Shown here one piece after another: positions 22,842 through 48,565 of a stretch of 48,651 nucleotides of DNA; the first letter of the stretch is position 1; each line of letters begins with the position of its first letter. The stretch spans positions 1 to 48,651 of the IMG/VR virus record IMGVR_UViG_3300010376_000047; one strand, 5' to 3'. The position numbers were made by a program, and so were the translations under genes. The notes beneath the pieces are model-generated. The model saw only the letters and a program-made list of their open reading frames with translations, did not search any database and was not told the origin of the DNA. Source of the stretch: a virus. Taxonomy: Duplodnaviria; Caudoviricetes.

Positions 22842-22853
22842 TGCTCCCTCCTA

Positions 22854-32322: not shown

Positions 32323-33144
32323 CTAGCTTTGCTCCCTCCTTCTTCTTCTCGTTGAACGTCCATTCGCTGAAGGCCGACCAGCTTGGATCGCCTTCAACAT
32401 CTCGGGTAGAGTCGGGTTGATTATGTCCCCGCTTCCGAAGACAGAACCACCGTCGGGAAGCTTGATTTGGCATTTGGCGTAGTAGCTCTCCGTCGCGTTG
32501 GTATGAAGCACCCTGACCTTCCGTTTCCGTCCGCGCGTCTCGCGCTCCTGGATGGATCCGTAGCCGACGATGTTCATCATACCGCAGATCTTCTGCGGCA
32601 TCATCTTCCCCTGCACCCAAGGCCAGAGGCACGACGGCGTTACGCCGTTGTCGTTCGGTTCCCACCAGAACGAATGAGCGGTAATACCAAGATTGACCGT
32701 TCCCGCTCCGACAGTATGACGAATGTACTGCCCGAGCCGCCACATATTGACGCGATACTCACCGCGATCCGGCCCGAACTGTTCACGATCCCGTCGAGCA
32801 AGGGATCCAACTGGCCCCTTTCGGTCGAGAACGTCACCATATACGTCGTCGAGTCCAACATCTTGAAGTAGAGAAATGGAGTCAATCCAGACCCAGTCAT
32901 ACTTCCCTCCTTCGTGCTGGACGTACTCAAGCGTTTCGAATATCTCTTCCCAACTGTTGACGACCACTTCCTCGCAGCCCGAGCCGATGATGGGGTCGGT
33001 GTGGTCGATGGGCGGGCGGATGATCAGCGTCTTGACGTCGTTCCCGCCCGATCCGATCAGCGTCGTCTTACCCCACCCGATGTCGGCGTGTATCAACATC
33101 GAGAGCTTAGACGATGCGCCGACTGGCTGAATGTTCGGCATCAC
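32323..33144 (-). CDS. AAA_24/Sak4-like ATPase (ssDNA annealing)
   Basis: HADIGWGKTT P-loop, WIDSIS, ITAH; between SSB and nuclease. Confidence 0.8.
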   Translation of the reverse strand: MMPNIQPVGASSKLSMLIHADIGWGKTTLIGSGGNDVKTLIIRPPIDHTDPIIGSGCEEVVVNSWEEIFETLEYVQHEGGKYDWVWIDSISLLQDVGLDDVYGDVLDRKGPVGSLARRDREQFGPDRGEYRVNMWRLGQYIRHTVGAGTVNLGITAHSFWWEPNDNGVTPSCLWPWVQGKMMPQKICGMMNIVGYGSIQERETRGRKRKVRVLHTNATESYYAKCQIKLPDGGSVFGSGDIINPTLPEMLKAIQAGRPSANGRSTRRRRREQS

Positions 33145-34618: not shown

Positions 34619-34734
34619 GTGGAATCCTCCTTGGTTGACCCTTCACTTCAGGAGCCGCCCGACACTCGGCTACTCCCCCGCGCGCTCAACCGCCCCGGCC
34701 GCAAGACTCCGGAGCGGCGAGCCGCGCTAGTCGA

Positions 34735-34763
34735 AGCCTACCGGATCCGAAGTTGAAAGTCTA
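34735..34763 (-). promoter_or_regulatory. sigma70-type promoter for the replication operon
   Basis: TAGACT-N17-TAGGCT on the - strand, upstream of the Cas4-like gene. Confidence 0.6.
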
Positions 34764-34954
34764 ATCTCCGCTCCGAGCGGGGTTTTTACGTTGGAGTCCA
34801 CTATACGCGGGACGAAACTGGTTTGAGTTGACAGCCTCGCGCGCGGTAATACCGCACGCCCGCGAGGGCAGCTACCGGCGGAGTCTCGTGTACGCGCGTA
34901 TATGCGCGGACGCGACAAGTGAGCAAGTAGCAGCCTCGCGAGCGTACGATATTA

Positions 34955-35014
34955 GAGGGATGGGGCAGCCCCGTACGAAGTACGGGGCTGGTTGCCCATT
35001 TGGTACCCATCCTC
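34955..35014. other. strong hairpin (terminator or small RNA)
   Basis: CAGCCCCGTAC-GAA-GTACGGGGCTG, with GGATGGG/CCCATCC outer pairing. Confidence 0.55.
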
Positions 35015-35234
35015 ACTCCTTGAACCAGCTGCCCATCGCCTTTAGCTCGGCTTGGGACAACTCTGTCGGGGCGTCTTCAGATACATCCACACGCCGTTTC
35101 CGACCCTTCGGCGGGTTGTTTCGCCTTTCCATCTCCGCCACCTTCTTCTCTGCCAGATCTCTGACGCCACGCTTGACGCCGTAATAGCAGCCGATGACGA
35201 AGGTGATGATACTGATGAACACTAGAACGCTCAT
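35013..35234 (-). CDS. small membrane protein
   Basis: N-terminal TM followed by a basic tail. Confidence 0.65.
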   Translation of the reverse strand: MSVLVFISIITFVIGCYYGVKRGVRDLAEKKVAEMERRNNPPKGRKRRVDVSEDAPTELSQAELKAMGSWFKE

Positions 35235-37009
35235 GCCTTCACCTTCTCCTTGAGGATCTGACGTCGCAGGTCAAGGACGTTCTTGTTCACTTCGAACTTG
35301 TCGTCGTTGACCTTCTTGATGTACTCTTCCACAGTTCCACGCGACCGATAGACGAGGGCCGTCACTTGGTGATTTCTCGTTGTATCGACCGCGCGGTCAG
35401 TGACCTGAGTCTGATCGTCCGGGTTCCAGGTCTCATCGAGTACGTGAACGTCACTCGCTCGATTCAACGTGATCCCGACACCGGCTGCCGCAGTCACCAG
35501 GATCGCGACCCGTACCCGACCGGCTTGGAAGTCGGCCATGATGCGGTTGCGATCCTTCTGCTTGACTGCGCCCGAGATGATCTCACACCGGATACCTACC
35601 CGGTTCAGGTACTTGTAGATCATCTCAGCGGTCTCGCGGAACTGGCTCGCGATGATCGCCTGGTCGTCACCCTCCGGATCCGCCGGATCAATCCCGCGTT
35701 CTGCAAGCTTGTCCAGCAGCATCGGGATCTTCCCGGATTCCTCGGTGGCCTTGACCTTCATATCAACGCGCCCGGTCTCTTCATCTACGCCGAGAACCTC
35801 GACTGAGCACTTGTGGTTCGCGAACTGCTTGAGCCTCGTATACTCAGCCAGGATTGAGGTAGCGGAGAGATGATACTCATCGATGCGAACTTCTGCCGCA
35901 TTGGCGAACTCGGTATATTGAGCCGCCTGCTTCGGGGTCATATCGCACCAGACATCGATCCACTGCGTCTCAGGCAGCTGCGGCAGGACTTCAGAACGAA
36001 GCCGCCGAACTGCATGAGGAGCTAGAGCCTGGTAGAACGCATCCTCGCGACCCTTGATGATGTTCCCGATCTGCTTGTGGTTGCCCCAGGTCGTCTCGAT
36101 CACCAGCCACTGAGCAGCCCATCGCCACTTTGATGTATACTTCTCAGGTTCCAGCCAGTGGAGTGCGCCCCAGAGCTTGATCGGCTTACCACCCATCGGT
36201 GTGCCGCTCAGAGCGTACTTCCGTTGAGCCTTGATCGCCTTCGCCACCTTCGGGAAAGCGTTGGTCACCACAGGCAGCCCCGTCTTATGGAACTCGTCAA
36301 TCGTGAATGAGTTCCACTCGATCTTCGGGAAGTTGCCTCGACGGATCATGTCCGCCGTCGTGACGAACCAGAACGGCTTTCCATCCTTCAGGCAGCGATC
36401 TACGACACGTTCACAGTCGGCCTTCTCCGCAAGGTTCAGGTCTCCCGAGAACGTTACCACGGTATGATCAGTCCACCGTTCGATCTCCATACGCCAAACA
36501 CTGTCCAGCGTAGACTTCGGCGCGACGACGAGATGACCGCCGTTCTCCAAATCAGCTTCGAAGACTGAGGCGATCACCTCAGTCGTCTTGCCGAGTCTAG
36601 GCTCCAGTAGATTGAGGCACGAAGTCGTCGCCATGAACATCACGTCAGCCCGCTGGTACGGACGAAACCACTTCGCAAGCTTGGGGAGCTTCTTGTACAG
36701 CTTCATACTCTTCAGCGGCGCATCGTCCGCGACCGCCAGAGTCTTCAGGCTGCTCTCCTTCTTCACCTGCTTGCGACCCCACTGCTTGAGAGCGTTCCCG
36801 AGTTGGAGACCTTCTCCAAACTCCTCGCGAAGACGCCTCATGACAACGAGATCGAGTGGCAGCGTCCACTTCGGGCCACCGTTGTTCGCATTCACGAACT
36901 TGGCTCCGAGAGGCTTCAGCCGGTTCATCGCCAGTACAGCATCAGGGCTGTACCGGAAATGTACCTCGCAGCGATCACCCTCTTCTGTTAGCTCGGCGAA
37001 CGCTTGCAT
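35231..37009 (-). CDS. SNF2/SF2 helicase
   Basis: RPYQ, PRLGKT, IDEFH, SGTP, GVGITL...QVTDRA; ATG 37009 has RBS AAGGAG. Confidence 0.88.
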   Translation of the reverse strand: MQAFAELTEEGDRCEVHFRYSPDAVLAMNRLKPLGAKFVNANNGGPKWTLPLDLVVMRRLREEFGEGLQLGNALKQWGRKQVKKESSLKTLAVADDAPLKSMKLYKKLPKLAKWFRPYQRADVMFMATTSCLNLLEPRLGKTTEVIASVFEADLENGGHLVVAPKSTLDSVWRMEIERWTDHTVVTFSGDLNLAEKADCERVVDRCLKDGKPFWFVTTADMIRRGNFPKIEWNSFTIDEFHKTGLPVVTNAFPKVAKAIKAQRKYALSGTPMGGKPIKLWGALHWLEPEKYTSKWRWAAQWLVIETTWGNHKQIGNIIKGREDAFYQALAPHAVRRLRSEVLPQLPETQWIDVWCDMTPKQAAQYTEFANAAEVRIDEYHLSATSILAEYTRLKQFANHKCSVEVLGVDEETGRVDMKVKATEESGKIPMLLDKLAERGIDPADPEGDDQAIIASQFRETAEMIYKYLNRVGIRCEIISGAVKQKDRNRIMADFQAGRVRVAILVTAAAGVGITLNRASDVHVLDETWNPDDQTQVTDRAVDTTRNHQVTALVYRSRGTVEEYIKKVNDDKFEVNKNVLDLRRQILKEKVKA

Positions 37010-37283
37010 CTTTGCCTCTCCTTCTACCTCGGTAGATTGCATAGACTTCACTGCCGCGTGCAGCGAACTCCCAGACATGGTTCGGCTCGGGGATGTTCAC
37101 TAGACGCGCGTGCAGGTTCGACTGGAGCTTATTCGCGTGCATGGGTGTCTCACAGGTGTAAACCAAAGCCCACCTGTTCGGGTTCTCGACGAGCGGCTGG
37201 AGTTGCACCATCCACTTACCGAACATTCCACCACGCTTGCGAGGAGGCTCCTTGACGAACTGCACCTTTTGTTCCTCAGGCAT
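36975..37283 (-). CDS. hypothetical protein
   Basis: MPEEQKVQF...; preceded by the conserved extended RBS. Confidence 0.7.
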   Translation of the reverse strand: MPEEQKVQFVKEPPRKRGGMFGKWMVQLQPLVENPNRWALVYTCETPMHANKLQSNLHARLVNIPEPNHVWEFAARGSEVYAIYRGRRRGKDASVRRANRRG

Positions 37284-37298
37284 AGTACCCTCCTTTTT

Positions 37299-37475
37299 CT
37301 TGACGGCCAGGAACACGCCCGGAGTTGAACCGGGAATACCCGTCGTGTTCAGAAGTAGTTGGGGGATCCGGGGAGGGTACCAATCCGACCCGGATCCCCC
37401 TTCGCCGCCGCCAGGGCAGCGGATCTACCCGGCGCGGCGAGCTTGTAGGCTGGTGTATAACGCTTTCCCAGCCTC
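37299..37475 (-). ncRNA. multi-hairpin structured RNA with anti-RBS loop and T-loop-like arm
   Basis: Four consecutive hairpins including GGGGGATCCGGG/CCCGGATCCCCC and CCCGG-TTCAACT-CCGGG. Confidence 0.55.
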
Positions 37476-37479
37476 TAGC

Positions 37480-37749
37480 CTAGCCGATCTCCCGCCTAGC
37501 CGGTACGCGGCCTGTACGGAAGCAATAGGGACAGCTGCGACCGATGATCACAGTCGGTAAAACCTGCTGTCCTTTCTTTACACGGAATGGCCGTAACCAT
37601 TCACGTTCGGCTACCAGGAACGGACGGTCACCCATCGTCCCTGGGCAATCCTTTCGACCGCATCTGACGATCAAGAAGCCGGGGAAATCCTTGCTTCTCG
37701 TCGCCTGGTACAGAGGCAGCCGACTGACGAACTCTTCTTGCGTTCTCAT
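37480..37749 (-). CDS. small Zn-finger protein
   Basis: CGRKDC...CPYC. Confidence 0.65.
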   Translation of the reverse strand: MRTQEEFVSRLPLYQATRSKDFPGFLIVRCGRKDCPGTMGDRPFLVAEREWLRPFRVKKGQQVLPTVIIGRSCPYCFRTGRVPARREIG

Positions 37750-38339
37750 CGCTTGATCCTTTCAAACGCCAGTCGATAGGTGCAGAGGAAATCCTCCACT
37801 TCATCCGGATCCTTGTTCCGCAGTATGGCCGGCAAAAGCTCCTCAGGGAACGTCTGCCAACAACCTCGCGTACTCAAGCCGAGAGCTTTGATGCCCGCCT
37901 GTGTTCCAGCGTGCAGGTAGATCCGCTCTGGCTTCAATCCAAGGAACGCTCCGAACCGTACAGCTACATCGTACGTCGTCATTGGCCCGATGCCTTTCGG
38001 CGCTCGGAGATCGATGGCGTTGTACAGCTGTCCGAAAGTCTCGGACTTGACCAGAGCATTGATGGAGTCAACTAGCTTACGCTCCAACTCAGGCAACGCC
38101 GGACTTACCTTCGACTGATGGTTGTGCATCTTTCCGTTTGGACGCTTGCTGCGCACCGCTCGACGCAGCGCGTCTAGTGCTGTTATGTCATGCGCACAAG
38201 CGTCCGGAATGTCATCTCGGAATCGACACACTGGGCTCGCGGGATCTCGTCGCCGCCGCTTGAAGTCGTACCACAACGCTGTCATGGTAGTCATCTCGGC
38301 GCGCGGTGGATCACGCTCCCATTCCTTCAGAATGTCCAC
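37746..38339 (-). CDS. HhH-fold protein (glycosylase / aGPT-pyrophosphorylase-like candidate)
   Basis: KGIGPMTTYDVAVRFG...YLHAGT...EVEDFLC; GTG start after the extended RBS. Confidence 0.55.
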   Translation of the reverse strand: MDILKEWERDPPRAEMTTMTALWYDFKRRRRDPASPVCRFRDDIPDACAHDITALDALRRAVRSKRPNGKMHNHQSKVSPALPELERKLVDSINALVKSETFGQLYNAIDLRAPKGIGPMTTYDVAVRFGAFLGLKPERIYLHAGTQAGIKALGLSTRGCWQTFPEELLPAILRNKDPDEVEDFLCTYRLAFERIKR

Positions 38340-38404
38340 TCGGTACCCTCCTTTGTTTTGGAGCATGGGCTCCAACCGTCCCTACTGCTAGGGACGGCTG
38401 CAGC

Positions 38405-38608
38405 TCACCTTCCAGTCCGTCTTGGATCTTCGAAGCGGATGTCGGCGGCAGCCAATGTCCGGTATCCGCCTGGGTCGGTATAAATCTGGATCAGTGACTT
38501 TTTGCGCCGCATTATGTAACCGTCCCTGTCGAACGTCCCTGCGGGCAAGAACTGCTTGAAGCTGATAATCAGGAATGGCCCTGTTACGAATGGATCCAGG
38601 GTATCCAA
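38405..38608 (-). CDS. hypothetical protein (start uncertain)
   Basis: Frame is open from about 38716 but the first standard start is TTG 38608, without a clear RBS. Confidence 0.4.
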   Translation of the reverse strand: MDTLDPFVTGPFLIISFKQFLPAGTFDRDGYIMRRKKSLIQIYTDPGGYRTLAAADIRFEDPRRTGR

Positions 38609-38697
38609 CCTGACTATGATCCAGACCCGGCGACCAGGACGAAGGTATTTTTCAACCTCCTCCTGGTCACCGGTTCTGATGGACTCCGCGACTGCCG

Positions 38698-39210
38698 TTA
38701 GGAAGGGTTGTTCGACCTACCGGCACGCCGCTCCGCGCGGGTGCGAGACCGACGCGGGGTTGCGGCAGCGCTCGCGCGCTTGCCGGTGGTCGTCTTCCCA
38801 GCCGAGCTTGCCCGGCCGCGTCCACGACGAGTCGTGGTCTCCTCGGCCTCCTCGGCATCGCCGTTGTCGGCCTTCGAGCGGCGACCGCTCACGACGCTGT
38901 TCTCTGCGTCGCCGTGAAGCTCCTTGGCCTCGGCCACGGAGATGCCGGCCCTGGCAGCGACCAGTTCCCAGCGCAGACCCTCGACGTCACGCATCCGGCG
39001 GATGCTCGCCTCGGTGTCCGGCTGCTCGCTGTACTCGCCGCCCGCGACCAGAGCCTTGCTCCATGCGAGCGAGGAGATCTGGCCGACGGTGACGCCCAAC
39101 TCCTGCGCCGCCTCGGAGTGGCTGGTGATGCCCGAACGAACGAGCCGCTCCAGCTTCTCCGGGGTGACCGGGTTGGTGTCCTCTGCAGGCTGTCGTCTTG
39201 CTCTTGCCAT
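38698..39210 (-). CDS. double-HTH protein with basic, histone-like C-terminal tail
   Basis: SHSEAAQELGVTVGQIS and LRWELVAARAGISVAEA; R/S/T/A-rich tail; has its own promoter. Confidence 0.75.
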   Translation of the reverse strand: MARARRQPAEDTNPVTPEKLERLVRSGITSHSEAAQELGVTVGQISSLAWSKALVAGGEYSEQPDTEASIRRMRDVEGLRWELVAARAGISVAEAKELHGDAENSVVSGRRSKADNGDAEEAEETTTRRGRGRASSAGKTTTGKRASAAATPRRSRTRAERRAGRSNNPS

Positions 39211-39257
39211 TGTTGCTCCCTCCTATTCTTACGGTTGAATGGTACCCTGCGACGTAG

Positions 39258-39286
39258 AGTATATCGCATGGGGGTGTTCCCGTCTA
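39258..39286 (-). promoter_or_regulatory. sigma70-type promoter
   Basis: TAGACG-N17-TATACT; hexamers identical to the 46483-46511 promoter. Confidence 0.75.
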
Positions 39287-39366
39287 GTCCATTTTTCCAG
39301 GGACTTTCTGGGGGAGAGTTGGATGACCCTCCGAACCGCCCGCCGTTACGCGGGCGACTCGCGGGG

Positions 39367-39654
39367 TCACCGCAGCTTCATCGTACGAAATGTCTTCCGG
39401 ATCTTCCGTTGGAAGTACGATCCGGTTGACACCGCATACGCACAAGCGACGACGCGCTGACGCGAAACGCCGAAGTACGCATAGCGGCTTCCATCCTTGA
39501 ACTGCACGACCATCCAGCGGTCGTGAATCACTCGCGGCCAACCCACCCACTCGATGTTCGACGACAGTACGCGCCGAATGTTCAGGTGAAGCGGGCCGGT
39601 CTCGGTGATGACCGTATGCTGGCCTTTCGGCTCCCAGCTCATGTCGAGAGGCAT
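39367..39654 (-). CDS. KTSC-domain protein
   Basis: SSNIEWVGW...VQFKDGSRYAYFGV...AVSTGSYFQRKIR. Confidence 0.8.
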   Translation of the reverse strand: MPLDMSWEPKGQHTVITETGPLHLNIRRVLSSNIEWVGWPRVIHDRWMVVQFKDGSRYAYFGVSRQRVVACAYAVSTGSYFQRKIRKTFRTMKLR

Positions 39655-40196: not shown

Positions 40197-40262
40197 TTTG
40201 GTACCCTCCTTCTGGAGCGTTATTGCTCCGGAACACCCGCCGTGACGCGGGTGAACCGCAAC

Positions 40263-41750: not shown

Positions 41751-41830
41751 TTGGTACCCTCCTTTTATTGATTACGGTTTGATGGACATAGCGTCCGGCG
41801 CGCGTCACCTTTCGATGACGCCGCCGCGCG

Positions 41831-42720: not shown

Positions 42721-42796
42721 ACGGTACCCTCCTTTTGGTTACGTGATCGGACATCCGAACACGAGGCCGCACCGAGTGACCGGTGCGACTTCCTGC

Positions 42797-43126
42797 TCAG
42801 AACTCCGTCAACTCAGCTTCGCCGCCACAACGCTTGCAGCGGAAGTAAGTTGATTGGCCGGCATAGGCTTCGATCTCATGCTTGCCGTGAGGCTTATTCC
42901 AATCAGGACATTCGCCTTCGGCATCGTAGCCTTCCAGATTGCCGTAGCAGGTTCCCTTGCGGGAATGCTCGACGCGCAGGATGATGTTCTCAGGCTTGGT
43001 CGAGACCCATGCACCGCAGAACTTACAGTGCAAGAGTTCCTGCCAAGGCTCGTGATCATCCCAGGGTGGCTCGCGAGTCACCCATGCGTCATACGCGCGA
43101 GCGTCGATGCCCGAGTGACTGTACAT
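42797..43126 (-). CDS. Cys-rich Zn-ribbon protein
   Basis: CKFCG...CKRCGG. Confidence 0.65.
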   Translation of the reverse strand: MYSHSGIDARAYDAWVTREPPWDDHEPWQELLHCKFCGAWVSTKPENIILRVEHSRKGTCYGNLEGYDAEGECPDWNKPHGKHEIEAYAGQSTYFRCKRCGGEAELTEF

Positions 43127-43721: not shown

Positions 43722-43799
43722 TTGGTACCCTCCTTTGTTTTCTCAGTCCGTGTCCAGTATGAACACGAGGCGACGGGCATGAAGCCCGTCACTTCCTGC

Positions 43800-44033
43800 T
43801 CACTTACTGGCCTTGCTCTTCTCCCACTTCTTGAACTCTGAGGCGGTGAAGTAGTACGGGACTTGCTCTTCGATCTGCTTCAACGCAAGATCGCACTCAG
43901 CGTCGTTGTTCGCGTCGTACAATCCATGGGCGCACGCACTATCGAGTACGTCCATCGCGATGTCATGCGGATCGAGCGGGCTGCCGTTCTCCTTGAAGAG
44001 ATTGATCATCTCCTCGATGATTTCCTCCAACAT
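43800..44033 (-). CDS. hypothetical protein
   Basis: MLEEIIEEMINLF...; coupled start. Confidence 0.6.
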   Translation of the reverse strand: MLEEIIEEMINLFKENGSPLDPHDIAMDVLDSACAHGLYDANNDAECDLALKQIEEQVPYYFTASEFKKWEKSKASK

Positions 44034-44568: not shown

Positions 44569-44670
44569 TGGTACCCTCCTTTGGGCATTACGTGATCGCG
44601 GATTGCGAACACGAAGCCCCAAAGCATGCTTTTTTCTAGGCTCTCTTTTTCACGCTTTGGGACTTCCTAC

Positions 44671-45319: not shown

Positions 45320-45393
45320 TTGGTACCCTCCTTTTGGTTCCTTGCCGTACGCGGTTGCGTACGGGAAGGCACTCTATGAGTGCCAACCCCTAC

Positions 45394-45534: not shown

Positions 45535-45554
45535 TGGTACCCTCCTTTATTGAG

Positions 45555-45881
45555 TTAGTCTTGCTCGTTCTCGTATGTCGCGCCGAGATGCTCTAGGCAA
45601 CGACCCTTGCTAAGCTCGTTCTTGACGCAGCGATGGCCGCCGCGAACGATCTTTATGAAGTACGTCTCGGCTTGACCTGGTGCCGGATTGGTTCGGCGCT
45701 TGCGAATCAGTTGCTCTTTGCCGCCGATGACGTAATCGCATTGGCGGTTGACGAATACCTCACTTGGCTTCGACTTGCGTCCTTGACCGCGCGGAGCGAT
45801 CAAACCAACGCTAAGTCCGTCGGCGTTCTTGCGGGCGAGCATCTTGTTGCGCGCGCGTAGACGCCTCGTTTGCTGATCCAT
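45555..45881 (-). CDS. basic Zn-binding-like protein, first gene of the leftward early operon
   Basis: MDQQTRRLRARNK...C...C...CLEH; variant extended RBS. Confidence 0.65.
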   Translation of the reverse strand: MDQQTRRLRARNKMLARKNADGLSVGLIAPRGQGRKSKPSEVFVNRQCDYVIGGKEQLIRKRRTNPAPGQAETYFIKIVRGGHRCVKNELSKGRCLEHLGATYENEQD

Positions 45882-46477
45882 TGCGGTACCCTCTTTCATT
45901 CGGTTGCGGAGCTACGCTCCATCCAGCGCCCGTTCGTTTGGGCGCTCGATGGAACGGTCGCGGCCATCCTCGACCGCGACCGCCCCGACCGTAAAGGAGG
46001 GGGTACCATATAGAGTTTTCAAGCTGCGCCAAGGATCGCCTTCATTCGGTCATAACCTCGTCCTACCGTTTCCCCGGAAAGCCAACGCCGCCGCACTAGA
46101 ACGGGGGTCGGTGGTCATCACGCTCCGGACGCGACGGTTCGAGAGCTTCATACCTTGGGGGATTCTTTTACCTATCGGTTCAAGCCCTGGCCGGGATCGC
46201 CCAACAGCCGCCGTCACGGTTGGCTACTTGCCGCCATACCCTTATCCTTTGAAGATTCGACCGTCCGTATCCGTCGCGCGCCGCTCTCCCGAGCGATACC
46301 GCTTTCTCCCGGTTTTCACCTTACTAGCATTGCTACTTGCCGGGCCGGACTCGGACTAGAAGACGCCGGGAACTAGCTCCGTTCCCGGCGTTTCAATCCT
46401 TGAGTTTTCAAAGAACGGGCGGGGAAGGCTCTTACAACTCACTTCCACTTCCCCCGAGCCGTCGTCTCGACGGCTCG
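45882..46477 (-). ncRNA. ~600-nt structured leader / candidate large ncRNA
   Basis: No credible ORF; multiple hairpins, two boxA-like motifs and an anti-RBS segment downstream of a clear promoter. Confidence 0.5.
46400..46417 (-). promoter_or_regulatory. rrn-type boxA antitermination element
   Basis: CGTTCTTTGAAAACTCAA about 60 nt downstream of the promoter. Confidence 0.6.
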
Positions 46478-46482
46478 CCTAG

Positions 46483-46511
46483 AGTATACCGGAAGCAAAC
46501 ATTGCCGTCTA
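46483..46511 (-). promoter_or_regulatory. sigma70-type early promoter
   Basis: TAGACG-N17-TATACT. Confidence 0.75.
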
Positions 46512-46534
46512 GGGTAGCAGTAGGGCGATTCTAA

Positions 46535-47105
46535 TGCTCCTCTAATGTAGTTTTTACGGTTGTATTGGGGTTGGATGCTTGGGGTATACATAGGGGATTA
46601 CTTTTCACGTGATGGGGATTACTTTTCACACGGCGTATATGTTTTGAATATGTTGTTGCAGGAGATCCTTGGTGTGGCCTGAGGTGGTCGAGGATTGGGC
46701 AATATGGGGGCAAAAAACCGGCATAGTTGAGGCTGGAATGAGTTGGGACGATTTTAGGCACGTTTTGAGTACGTTTTTACACTGTTTTGACATGTTTAGT
46801 GTACAATGGCCACGTTTTTTAGCTTTGTTTGAACTGTAATGGTTCTGTTCTTCGCGAAATGGCTTGAGTTGAGATGTAGAAAGCGCGCGCATGTCAAACC
46901 ATTGTACACGCGTATATACGCTCGGCGGTGTATTTTGGCATGAGTTGCGGTGGCCACACATGCGATTTGCCATGCTCATGCACATTTTATGGGCTTTGCA
47001 TTGAGTTGACGTGCTTACCGTGTGTTGAGTTGTGTTGAGTTGACAGGGCGCCACGACCCATTGGCGCAAGCCAATACAACCGCGCCAACCCATCGAGGCA
47101 ACTCA
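46535..47105. other. AT-rich, G/T-skewed noncoding region with repeats (candidate origin or genome terminus)
   Basis: GGGGATTACTTTTCAC x2; TTGAGTTG repeats; several 9-12 bp inverted repeats; lies at the strand switch. Confidence 0.55.
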
Positions 47106-47223
47106 ACTAATCGAATCCGAACTAAACTCTAAGGTAGCTCTAAGGTAGAGCGCGTACCCTACGGGTAACGAAAACGAAGTCGCGGCCGGGCGGATCCCGC
47201 GCCGCGCGGAAGGAGTTAGGACG

Positions 47224-47694
47224 ATGGATAAGGCTCTCGATAAGGCGAAGAAGACGGCTCGGACGTTCTACGCTCGCGAGGAGAAGGCGAACCCGGCCGG
47301 GTTCCCGTTCTCGCCCGCGAACGCGACGAAGGCGGCGGCGAAGGCGAGCGGGATCCCCGCGTCGCGGCTCGTTCCCGTCGTCGCGGCCGTTTACTACGAG
47401 GAGAACGGGAAGCGCGCGCCGCTCTCGTTCGCTCGCGGGAAGGCGACGCCCGCCGCGATTCGCTCGGCCGTCGCGAAGGCGCGCGACGCGGGCGGACGGC
47501 TCGGGCGCTGGGAAGTCCTCGCGGTTCGGCTCGGCGTCGCGCTCGGCCGTCCGGTCTCGGTCTCGGAAGTCCGCGCGCTCTACGTCGCGGCCGGGAAGGA
47601 TCTCGACTCGTCGTATACGGGTCGCGGGACTCGGGCGGGCGCGACGAAGACGCGGACGGACGAACTCGCCGCGCTCGACTCGGCGACGAAGTAA
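47224..47694 (+). CDS. basic HTH-like protein encoded by a CA/TG-free gene
   Basis: RBS AAGGAG; own terminator; similar to 38698-39210; no His, Gln or Cys. Confidence 0.8.
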   Translation: MDKALDKAKKTARTFYAREEKANPAGFPFSPANATKAAAKASGIPASRLVPVVAAVYYEENGKRAPLSFARGKATPAAIRSAVAKARDAGGRLGRWEVLAVRLGVALGRPVSVSEVRALYVAAGKDLDSSYTGRGTRAGATKTRTDELAALDSATK

Positions 47695-47715
47695 GCTCGC
47701 GCGTATTCTCGCCGG

Positions 47716-47746
47716 AAAACGGCGGCCGAAAGGCCGCCGTTTTTTT
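47716..47746 (+). terminator. Rho-independent terminator
   Basis: AAAACGGCGGCC-GAAA-GGCCGCCG-TTTTTTT. Confidence 0.9.
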
Positions 47747-48083
47747 ATCCCTCGGGACTCCGTTGACATGGGGCTGGGCGCTCGGGATGAAAATCAATAT
47801 CCACCCTTTAGCATGTGTGCTGCGCCACCCATCACCCACCCATCCAGGAACCATCCAACACCACCCCTAAAAAAATCCAAATCAAACCACCCTATATACG
47901 CGGAGGCGAGGCAGGCAACTCTTCCGCGCGCCCGAGTCAGCGCGAGTATATAGCAATTGGATACGCATCTTCGAACCGGGTCGGGCGGGCGCGTAATATA
48001 CTCGCGCGGACGCGGAAGTTGACCAAGAGCGGGCCACGCGCGCGTACGATATACTAGGACGACCGAAAAGAAAGGAGTGCTGG

Positions 48084-48437: not shown

Positions 48438-48565
48438 ACCCGTAAATAGCGGGATTTCAATACTAGACTCCAAACATCGAGTCGGCTAGAATCGAGTTAC
48501 GGATCCGGGGTGGTGCAGACGAGTCCCGCCCCGGATCCTGACTCGCAAACCAACAAAGGACAACA

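Follow-up and report, generated by a model that had tools for sequence, protein, structure and literature searches.

This locus raises the question of why a phage that repeats one extended ribosome-binding site (RBS) before many of its genes carries a single reversed copy of it, and why that copy sits in the loop of a long hairpin. The window, by which we mean the whole stretch of 48,651 nt analyzed here, covers positions 1–48,651 of the Caudoviricetes record IMGVR_UViG_3300010376_000047, a linear virus record that is 80% complete; L360 is a longer assembly of the same phage, with 6 mismatches in 20,918 nt. A contractile tail module lies on the + strand of the window. The − strand carries an array of small early-type genes, which runs from 46500 to 37500 and is followed by genes for an SNF2 helicase, an exonuclease, a Sak4-like protein, a primase/helicase, a DnaE-type polymerase and ThyX. 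The SNF2-type helicase (35231..37009, − strand) is the first gene of this replication module, and its closest cultured relatives belong to actinophages with at most 33% identity, from which we infer an Actinomycetota host. A scan of genome contigs for a host or prophage returned a single 37-residue match and identified neither. Two non-coding stretches of the window, 34620–35012 and 46750–48060, are rich in ATATA/CGCG palindromes and share a 49-nt repeat (34904–34952 and 48004–48052); they are possibly origin or promoter elements.

Hairpin I is located at 37361..37400 on the − strand and is defined by its fold, by stem covariation and by covariation of the loop with the repeated motif. A sequence-only reading of this DNA had described a perfect 12-bp stem with a loop exactly complementary to the repeated RBS, and both features were borne out. 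The arms GGGGGATCCGGG/CCCGGATCCCCC pair perfectly over 12 bp and enclose a 16-nt loop that reads UCGGAUUGGUACCCUC on the − strand. Within the hairpin, UUGGUACCCUCC is exactly complementary to GGAGGGUACCAA of the repeated RBS (12-mer at 37372–37383); 11 of these 12 nucleotides lie in the loop, and the final C opens the 3′ arm. The window contains three perfect stems of at least 12 bp, including this one, and the chance expectation for the RBS 12-mer is 0.003 copies per strand. Exact copies of the 9-mer GGAGGGTAC number nine on the − strand; the + strand has one, which is hairpin I. In Rfam, neither the window nor seven related loci gave a match at the gathering threshold, and a local Rfam search with E-values up to 10 gave only a chance snoRNA match. 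Another stem, GGATCCGGGG/CCCCGGATCC, with a different loop, is found at 48495–48540, at the start of the + strand region.

The counterpart of the loop is the class I extended RBS, AAGGAGGGTACC, which stands in front of ten genes. The ten copies are sited 0–4 nt before the starts and keep a TACC spacer beyond the Shine–Dalgarno core; they serve non-structural genes only and share a single orientation, with the one reversed copy in hairpin I. Exact 9-mers on the − strand are located at 38343..38351 (gene start 38339), 40201..40209 (40196, DUF6011), 41754..41762 (41750, DUF2786), 42724..42732 (42720), 43725..43733 (43721), 44571..44579 (44568), 45323..45331 (45319) and 45537..45545 (45534). The site of the first early gene (start 45881), at 45886..45894 on the same strand, has one mismatch and is predicted to be sequestered in cis at an opening cost of ~16 kcal/mol. 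The distal copies named in the sequence-only reading are present, with 12-mers that start at 40198, 41751, 43722, 44568, 45320 and 45534, each one base lower than had been given, and the adjacent copy reads GGAGGGUACUAUG as it had stated. This adjacent, deviating class I site (GGAGGGTACT, 37284..37296, − strand) is directly followed by a conserved ORF of 102 aa (36975..37283, − strand) to which no function is assigned; no PHROGs family was found for it, and its Atlas neighbors are unnamed clusters with a best score of 0.89, which is a lead only. An imperfect class I RBS also precedes a 15-codon ORF on the 3′ side of the helicase (34953..35012, − strand).

The calculated energies separate these sites from the other gene starts. 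Among the 49 starts examined, the loop–RBS duplex reaches −18.6 to −24.3 kcal/mol at nine distal copies, −19.6 kcal/mol at the adjacent copy and −19.0 kcal/mol at the imperfect copy at 35000, and the remaining 38 starts lie at −16.0 kcal/mol or weaker. When the cost of opening both RNAs is included, net binding is −4.7 to −13.9 kcal/mol at eight distal class I sites and −2.1 to 0.0 kcal/mol at five non-cognate starts. The adjacent RBS shows −4.6 kcal/mol, comparable to the weakest distal site (−4.7 kcal/mol), and in this calculation it is a possible weak target of the loop. The class I leaders are mostly A-rich and fairly open. Several of them carry a repeated cassette before the RBS, GCAGGAAGT-stem-CTCGTGTTC-stem, at 42733–42797, 43734–43800 and 44580–44670 (− strand), and the same cassette occurs in seven group A relatives. 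Its GTGTTC..GAACAC part resembles the cluster O repeat, which is a different kind of repeat from the class I RBS/hairpin system (PMC4351075).

We then compared the locus with its relatives. Of 25 group A loci, 23 have hairpin I; the loop core, GGTACCCTC, is constant among them, and the 5′ arm takes 19 different forms. In L388 the form is rearranged, with the full antisense between two stems, and in L390 no hairpin I was found within 10 kb. An alignment of eight stems, which was not fitted, has 91.6% of its cells paired and five pairs changed on both sides, a level that none of 500 shuffles reached. Each of the eight group A records (38 searched) contains 2–15 motif copies that point the same way and exactly one that points the other way. 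These comparisons bear on the view that the element is a terminator or stabilizing hairpin derived from inverted duplication of an RBS cassette, in which the loop match would be a relic or chance. The G+C-rich stem does lie at a gene boundary; no U-tailed terminator was found in 36900–39500, and in actinobacteria transcription can also terminate at stems that lack a U run. However, the stems diverge around a fixed loop core, and the loop tracks the motif through several changes. Moreover, in a blind pattern scan of 120 loci with an antisense 9-mer, which yielded no new member of the C-class hairpins, one locus had a stem scoring at least 11 and none had a repeated motif. We therefore regard this origin as extremely improbable.

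The changes that the loop follows are seen in five further helicase clades, each of which has a different repeated RBS, a loop altered to match it and one reversed copy in the loop of a long stem. The RBS GGAGGGTACA is matched by the loop TTGTACCCTCC in L046, L050 and L051; (A)CCAGGGAGG by CCTCCCTGG in L011–L024, L036, L053, L179, L182 and L186, where the RBS reads CCAGGGAGG or ACAGGGAGG; GGAGGGTCA by TTGACCCTCC in L025; AAAGGAGCCA by TGGCTCCTTT in L032 and L033; and AGGAGCTAC by GTAGCTCC in L058. The clades were taken from a quick helicase tree, and records inside one clade are not independent; since the variants fall in separate clades, they amount to about six independent cases and not dozens. 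The median duplex energy of cognate loop–RBS pairs is −17 to −25 kcal/mol, and that of pairs between motif classes is −5 to −19 kcal/mol. Cross-pairing between A and A′, whose motifs are one base apart, remains at −18 to −24 kcal/mol. L025 and L030 also share a strongly folded multi-stem element ~150 nt 5′ of the helicase, for which L025 gave no Rfam match. Strong hairpins with loops matching RBS-like 9-mers before three genes each were observed at G018:21583 (+), G019:31469 (+) and G013:26401 (+), and are possibly smaller versions of the loop/RBS system. In the B-lineage record G009, a third hairpin with an A-type loop, TGGTACCCTC, is located at 35007 (−) in a genome without GGAGGGTACC sites.

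A uniform scan of 48 records, 25 of them with a repeated motif, required a stem score of at least 11 around the antisense. Such a stem was present in 17 of the 25 motif-positive records vs 53 of 1033 non-cognate pairs, and 19 of these 53 are true hairpins. Two of the 17 matches are doubtful, because the stem in G033 is other than its earlier-found hairpin and that in AnnaSerena, where no convincing loop copy of the reversed motif was found, is probably chance. The eight misses comprise two true hairpins lost to the filter (G027 and L186), Anaya just below the threshold, and five real negatives in which the motif occurs without an antisense hairpin, namely G014 (two genomes in the record), G023, BiPauneto, TM4 and Pixie. 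Thus, repeated RBS motifs can persist in the absence of the hairpin. A search of G014 and G023 for bulged or wobble antisense gave no convincing loop; a further loop in G014, complementary to the leader motif GCAGGAAG, was rejected as well, since that motif does not occur in the leaders of G014. Among seven cultured actinophages with related helicases, six have no repeated RBS motif. The seventh, BiPauneto (W03), carries the RBS-position motif CGAAAGGATCGA before eight genes, and no antisense hairpin was found.

The persistence of the motif without its hairpin in five records would suit a motif that is a protein-binding site, either a DNA operator or an RNA site, with the reversed copy as an inverted site or as a decoy on the opposite-strand RNA. 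Two mycobacteriophage papers (Pope et al. 2011, PMC3203893; the Adephagia paper of 2024, PMC11373665) leave room for a protein partner of comparable motifs, and the window stem, which is purely Watson–Crick, folds well on either strand; its opposite strand even folds better (−34.2 vs −29.5 kcal/mol). Whole-stem energy favors the antisense strand in only 11 of 18 cases. In a strand-neutral count of the internal non-Watson–Crick positions, of which there are 37 in 22 stems, 18 are G–U, one is A–C and 18 are other mismatches. The excess of G–U over A–C indicates that the strand with the antisense loop is the strand that folds, a point on which the stem of the window itself is silent, and argues against a protein site. 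So does the placement of the lone reversed copy, which is nearly always in a loop, and the 2-nt bulge of a second antisense, in the early leader, can be understood only in terms of base pairing. On this evidence, a protein-binding site is very unlikely.

This second, imperfect anti-RBS is located in the long early leader (45989..46010, − strand), has a 2-nt insertion and is predicted from folds to be the cis partner of the RBS of the first gene. It is present in six of the nine records examined, namely the window and five other group A records. The leader itself (45900–46510, − strand) is a structured region of ~600 nt after the early promoter-like site and contains two copies of the motif TTGAAAACTC, which we take to resemble the boxA of rRNA leaders; similar motifs occur in two of the five other group A leaders. 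The first early gene (45555–45881, − strand) encodes a basic protein of 108 aa with an arginine-rich N-terminus, which we presume to be reminiscent of N-type antiterminators, and it is a candidate RNA-binding partner. Pfam and PHROGs gave no identification of this protein, and its Atlas matches are unnamed clusters below 0.9.

If the loop acts by base pairing, its partner could be the RBS that follows it or the distant copies of the array. The first arrangement would be a cis pseudoknot, in which the loop, by pairing with the RBS ~67 nt downstream, would gate the small ORF together with the helicase operon. The duplex with the adjacent RBS is strong enough in the window (−19.6 kcal/mol), and most lineages have a strong RBS after the hairpin. 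That of L046, L051 and L025 is a full class I site at a distance of 20–55 nt, and in L051 and L025 it equals the distal ones. Nevertheless, 19 of 21 loci have a following RBS whose pairing is weaker than the distal median, and in the other two it is equal. For seven B-lineage loci, the RBS of the next gene is of class II type and pairs more weakly than the distal sites, and in L004, L007 and L008 of group A the adjacent site has decayed (−11 to −13 kcal/mol) with the loop unchanged. The spacing between the hairpin and the adjacent RBS ranges from 20 to >300 nt, and the location of the hairpin depends on the lineage: it lies in the middle of the array, at its end, before the helicase or after it. 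In some of these lineages hairpin I occupies the gap after the helicase that is equivalent to 34620–35012. The variable position and the mostly weaker adjacent RBS favor action in trans over a cis pseudoknot, which we consider a very improbable main function, as the other RBS class of the next B-lineage gene also argues; cis pairing could be a side effect in the window. The sequence-only reading had preferred multi-target pairing in trans and had proposed loop–RBS covariation as a check. At the level of sequence this pairing is well supported, the covariation being positive across lineages, and the pseudoknot it offered as an alternative is disfavored. The tRNA-like module, the cis anti-RBS of the early leader and the second hairpin/RBS class were not part of that reading.

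Several elements surround the hairpin. On the − strand, the stop of the upstream ORF with a possible −10 is followed by an optional hairpin, AAG(C/T)T, the hairpin P1 and then hairpin I (P2), whose loop holds the anti-RBS. After these come a tRNA-like minihelix, the conserved sequence GCCGT and the adjacent RBS. P1 (37403–37439) with its conserved AAG(C/T)T lead-in spans 37403..37446 on the − strand, is based on its fold and an alignment of eight relatives, and is likely to be the 5′ domain of the hairpin I RNA. The candidate −10 hexamer, TAGGCT (37477..37482, − strand), is weak and overlaps the stop codon of the ORF 37480–37749. A TAGRRT-type hexamer was read by eye at the same place in seven of nine group A sequences; no convincing −35 was found for it in the window, and the sigma-70 scan did not score the site. 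In a pattern scan of the early strand, two promoter-like sites were the only matches, both CTAGAC-N18-TATACT on the − strand: one is 5′ of the early array (46483..46512), and the other is 5′ of a class II gene and hairpin I (39258..39287). For the latter, the promoter scan found one site vs 0.9 expected in shuffles, and the support comes from the identical repeat of both hexamers. The placement of the hairpin at the end of the early operon, as first read, holds for the B lineage; in this genome the promoter-like site at 39258–39287 is upstream of the hairpin, so the hairpin is more likely on the middle transcript.

The tRNA-like minihelix (37311..37350, − strand) is composed of a 7-bp acceptor-type stem, a short GG-containing linker and a 5-bp T arm with a TTCAACT loop. 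The T arm is fully paired in 20 of 23 group A loci with arm sequences that vary compensatorily, and the module is absent from L007 and L008. It has no anticodon arm in the window and is not a tRNA or tmRNA gene; ARAGORN likewise found no tRNA or tmRNA in the window or in 17 loci. By its sequence, the minihelix is a candidate for an optional RNase P/RNase Z processing signal. Some relatives have long insertions or an extra arm in this module (L003:9500–9690, L361, L373, L006 and L366).

A second loop/RBS pair exists in this group. The class II RBS, GGAGGGAGC, precedes three genes of the window on the − strand, at 39215..39223 (start 39210), 32331..32339 (start 32322, DUF669, presumably SSB-like from its position) and 22843..22851 (start 22841, HU-like). 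Hairpin II, whose loop reads GCTCCCTCC, is known from the relatives only, the portal not being among the scanned genes of the window; it occurs in 11 related records on the late strand and, where this was checked (G001), directly after the portal gene. The loops of hairpins I and II each prefer their own RBS class. The strand count for hairpin II is 5 vs 4, the class II sites include some late-strand genes, and G027 has hairpin II and no exact class II site. The presence of a second hairpin with a second RBS class suggests a two-step cascade.

We also compared the locus with known systems. In the C4 RNA of phages P1 and P7, loops pair in trans with an RBS region, host RNase P cuts the precursor, and loop changes alter the specificity (PMC5320573 and PMC12197685). 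Judged by sequence, hairpin I is similar in that its loop appears to present an RBS complement for action at a distance. C4 uses two loops in a three-stem fold to control one immunity operon of a temperate phage, whereas hairpin I has one loop for about ten separate genes with a shared motif. The hairpin I RNA has a single targeting loop instead of three stem-loops with a′ and b′ loops and gave no match to the Rfam C4 models, and the tRNA-like part of its locus, unlike in C4, is a separate downstream module. Staphylococcal RsaE and RNAIII are small RNAs with anti-Shine–Dalgarno loops and unpaired C-rich segments. For the streptococcal csRNAs, it has been proposed that unpaired C-rich anti-Shine–Dalgarno segments block ribosome access on several mRNAs (PMC3091779). 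These are host RNAs with heterogeneous targets; here the code is lineage-specific and standardized and changes together with the loop, and one genome can carry two codes side by side. Temporal shut-off in phages is mostly credited to proteins. In T4, RegB shuts off early mRNAs as a group via the Shine–Dalgarno motif, and is a protein endoribonuclease that cuts GGAG (PMC9409239). In our case the specificity would come from RNA base pairing, and no RegB-like gene was found among the 62 ORFs scanned in the window. A search of the open-access literature found no description of a phage RNA whose sequence matches an RBS code common to a whole gene class. The mechanism in which a loop blocks an RBS is already known from C4 and csRNAs; it is the regulon design with a class-wide code that this search did not find in print.

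A close parallel to the class I motif is provided by the start-associated sequences (SAS) and ESAS of cluster K mycobacteriophages and cluster EF Microbacterium phages. The reports describe an over-conserved motif at the RBS position of 10–19 non-structural genes with long intergenic gaps (PMC3203893, PMC7302621 and PMC11373665). Like SAS, the class I motif is asymmetric, occupies the RBS position of non-structural genes in one orientation and has a single reversed copy. Unlike SAS, its motif AAGGAGGGTACC differs from the published cluster K and EF consensus sequences, and the genomes are unrelated. ESAS are 17-bp inverted repeats with a SigA-like promoter; class I leaders carry stem-forming cassettes, and on the early strand as a whole the pattern scan gave the two promoter-like sites named above. 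In Pope et al. 2011, the function of SAS is given as unknown and a single reversed copy is noted in four K1 phages (PMC3203893); the role is still called unknown in a paper of 2024 (PMC11373665). No antisense partner is proposed in these SAS papers (PMC3203893, PMC7302621 and PMC11373665). In Adephagia, the one reversed SAS copy lies in the 92–93 gap, which is the reported start of late transcription. When we folded 12 cluster K phages, four (Anaya, CrimD, Shaobing and LilPharaoh) had the reversed SAS in a 10-nt hairpin loop 3′ of a promoter-like site. The loop is degenerate in three of the 12 and absent in five with SAS unchanged, which makes the K1 link a lead and not a demonstration. In Anaya (L164:29690–30066) and 193 phage records, we also observed a conserved non-coding region of four stems where the late transcript of cluster K mycobacteriophages begins; its z-score is −5.8, and some records annotate a hypothetical ORF there.

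Taken together, complementarity, stem conservation, loop–motif coupling, the folding strand in relatives and the variable position form the sequence evidence for the model. We consider it likely, with good though not firm confidence, that hairpin I is the active part of a small RNA of the phage, which would pair in trans with the class I RBSs and block their translation as a group. Its production, processing, repressive sign and timing we infer as follows. An RNA of ~95–130 nt, comprising P1 and P2, would be made either as part of the middle transcript or from a promoter close by. The RNase P and RNase Z of the host may cut at the tRNA-like module, which would release the RNA and leave the replication operon with a separate 5′ end. 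With the loop on the Shine–Dalgarno core and on the spacer as far as the start codon, the 30S subunit could not load. Since the RNA gene lies downstream of its own targets, the result would be a delayed negative feedback that retires the early genes; the replication genes would largely escape, because the site of the neighboring gene is weaker and the helicase lacks one. In the relatives, hairpin II after the portal would impose the same block on class II genes, late in infection.

Covariation shows pairing and does not give the sign of regulation. In the main alternative, the loop would pair with the motif and have another outcome, such as stabilization or processing of the messages, guidance of a nuclease or phage protein, or sensing of early mRNA to gate downstream transcription. 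The structured cassettes of the class I leaders and the processing-type module after hairpin I would fit such a role. However, the duplex covers the Shine–Dalgarno core itself, which speaks for repression. For a sensor, the duplex of 11–13 bp invades the stem by at most one base, which makes opening by strand displacement unlikely, and the position of the hairpin relative to the downstream genes is not conserved. An outcome other than repression is thus unlikely in our estimate, and we retain group repression in trans as the working model.

More broadly, we propose tentatively, and with somewhat less than even confidence, that these phages use RNA address codes for part of their developmental program, in which every class of genes is marked by an extended RBS of its own and the hairpin RNA of each later stage silences the previous class (hairpin I the early genes; hairpin II, after the portal, the middle genes), and that the SAS repeats of the cluster K1 mycobacteriophages, with their lone reversed copy, have the same explanation. 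If true, shut-off would here be of a different design, with a phage RNA addressing a whole gene class via an RBS code that is shared and co-evolves, and two orthogonal loop/RBS pairs in one genome would be a natural multi-channel riboregulator. The six loop/RBS variants would be ready-made orthogonal parts for synthetic control of translation. The model would also give a testable answer to the question, standing since 2011 and taken up again in 2024 (PMC3203893 and PMC11373665), of what recognizes the start-associated sequences, and the K1 case is amenable to test in cultured phages on M. smegmatis.
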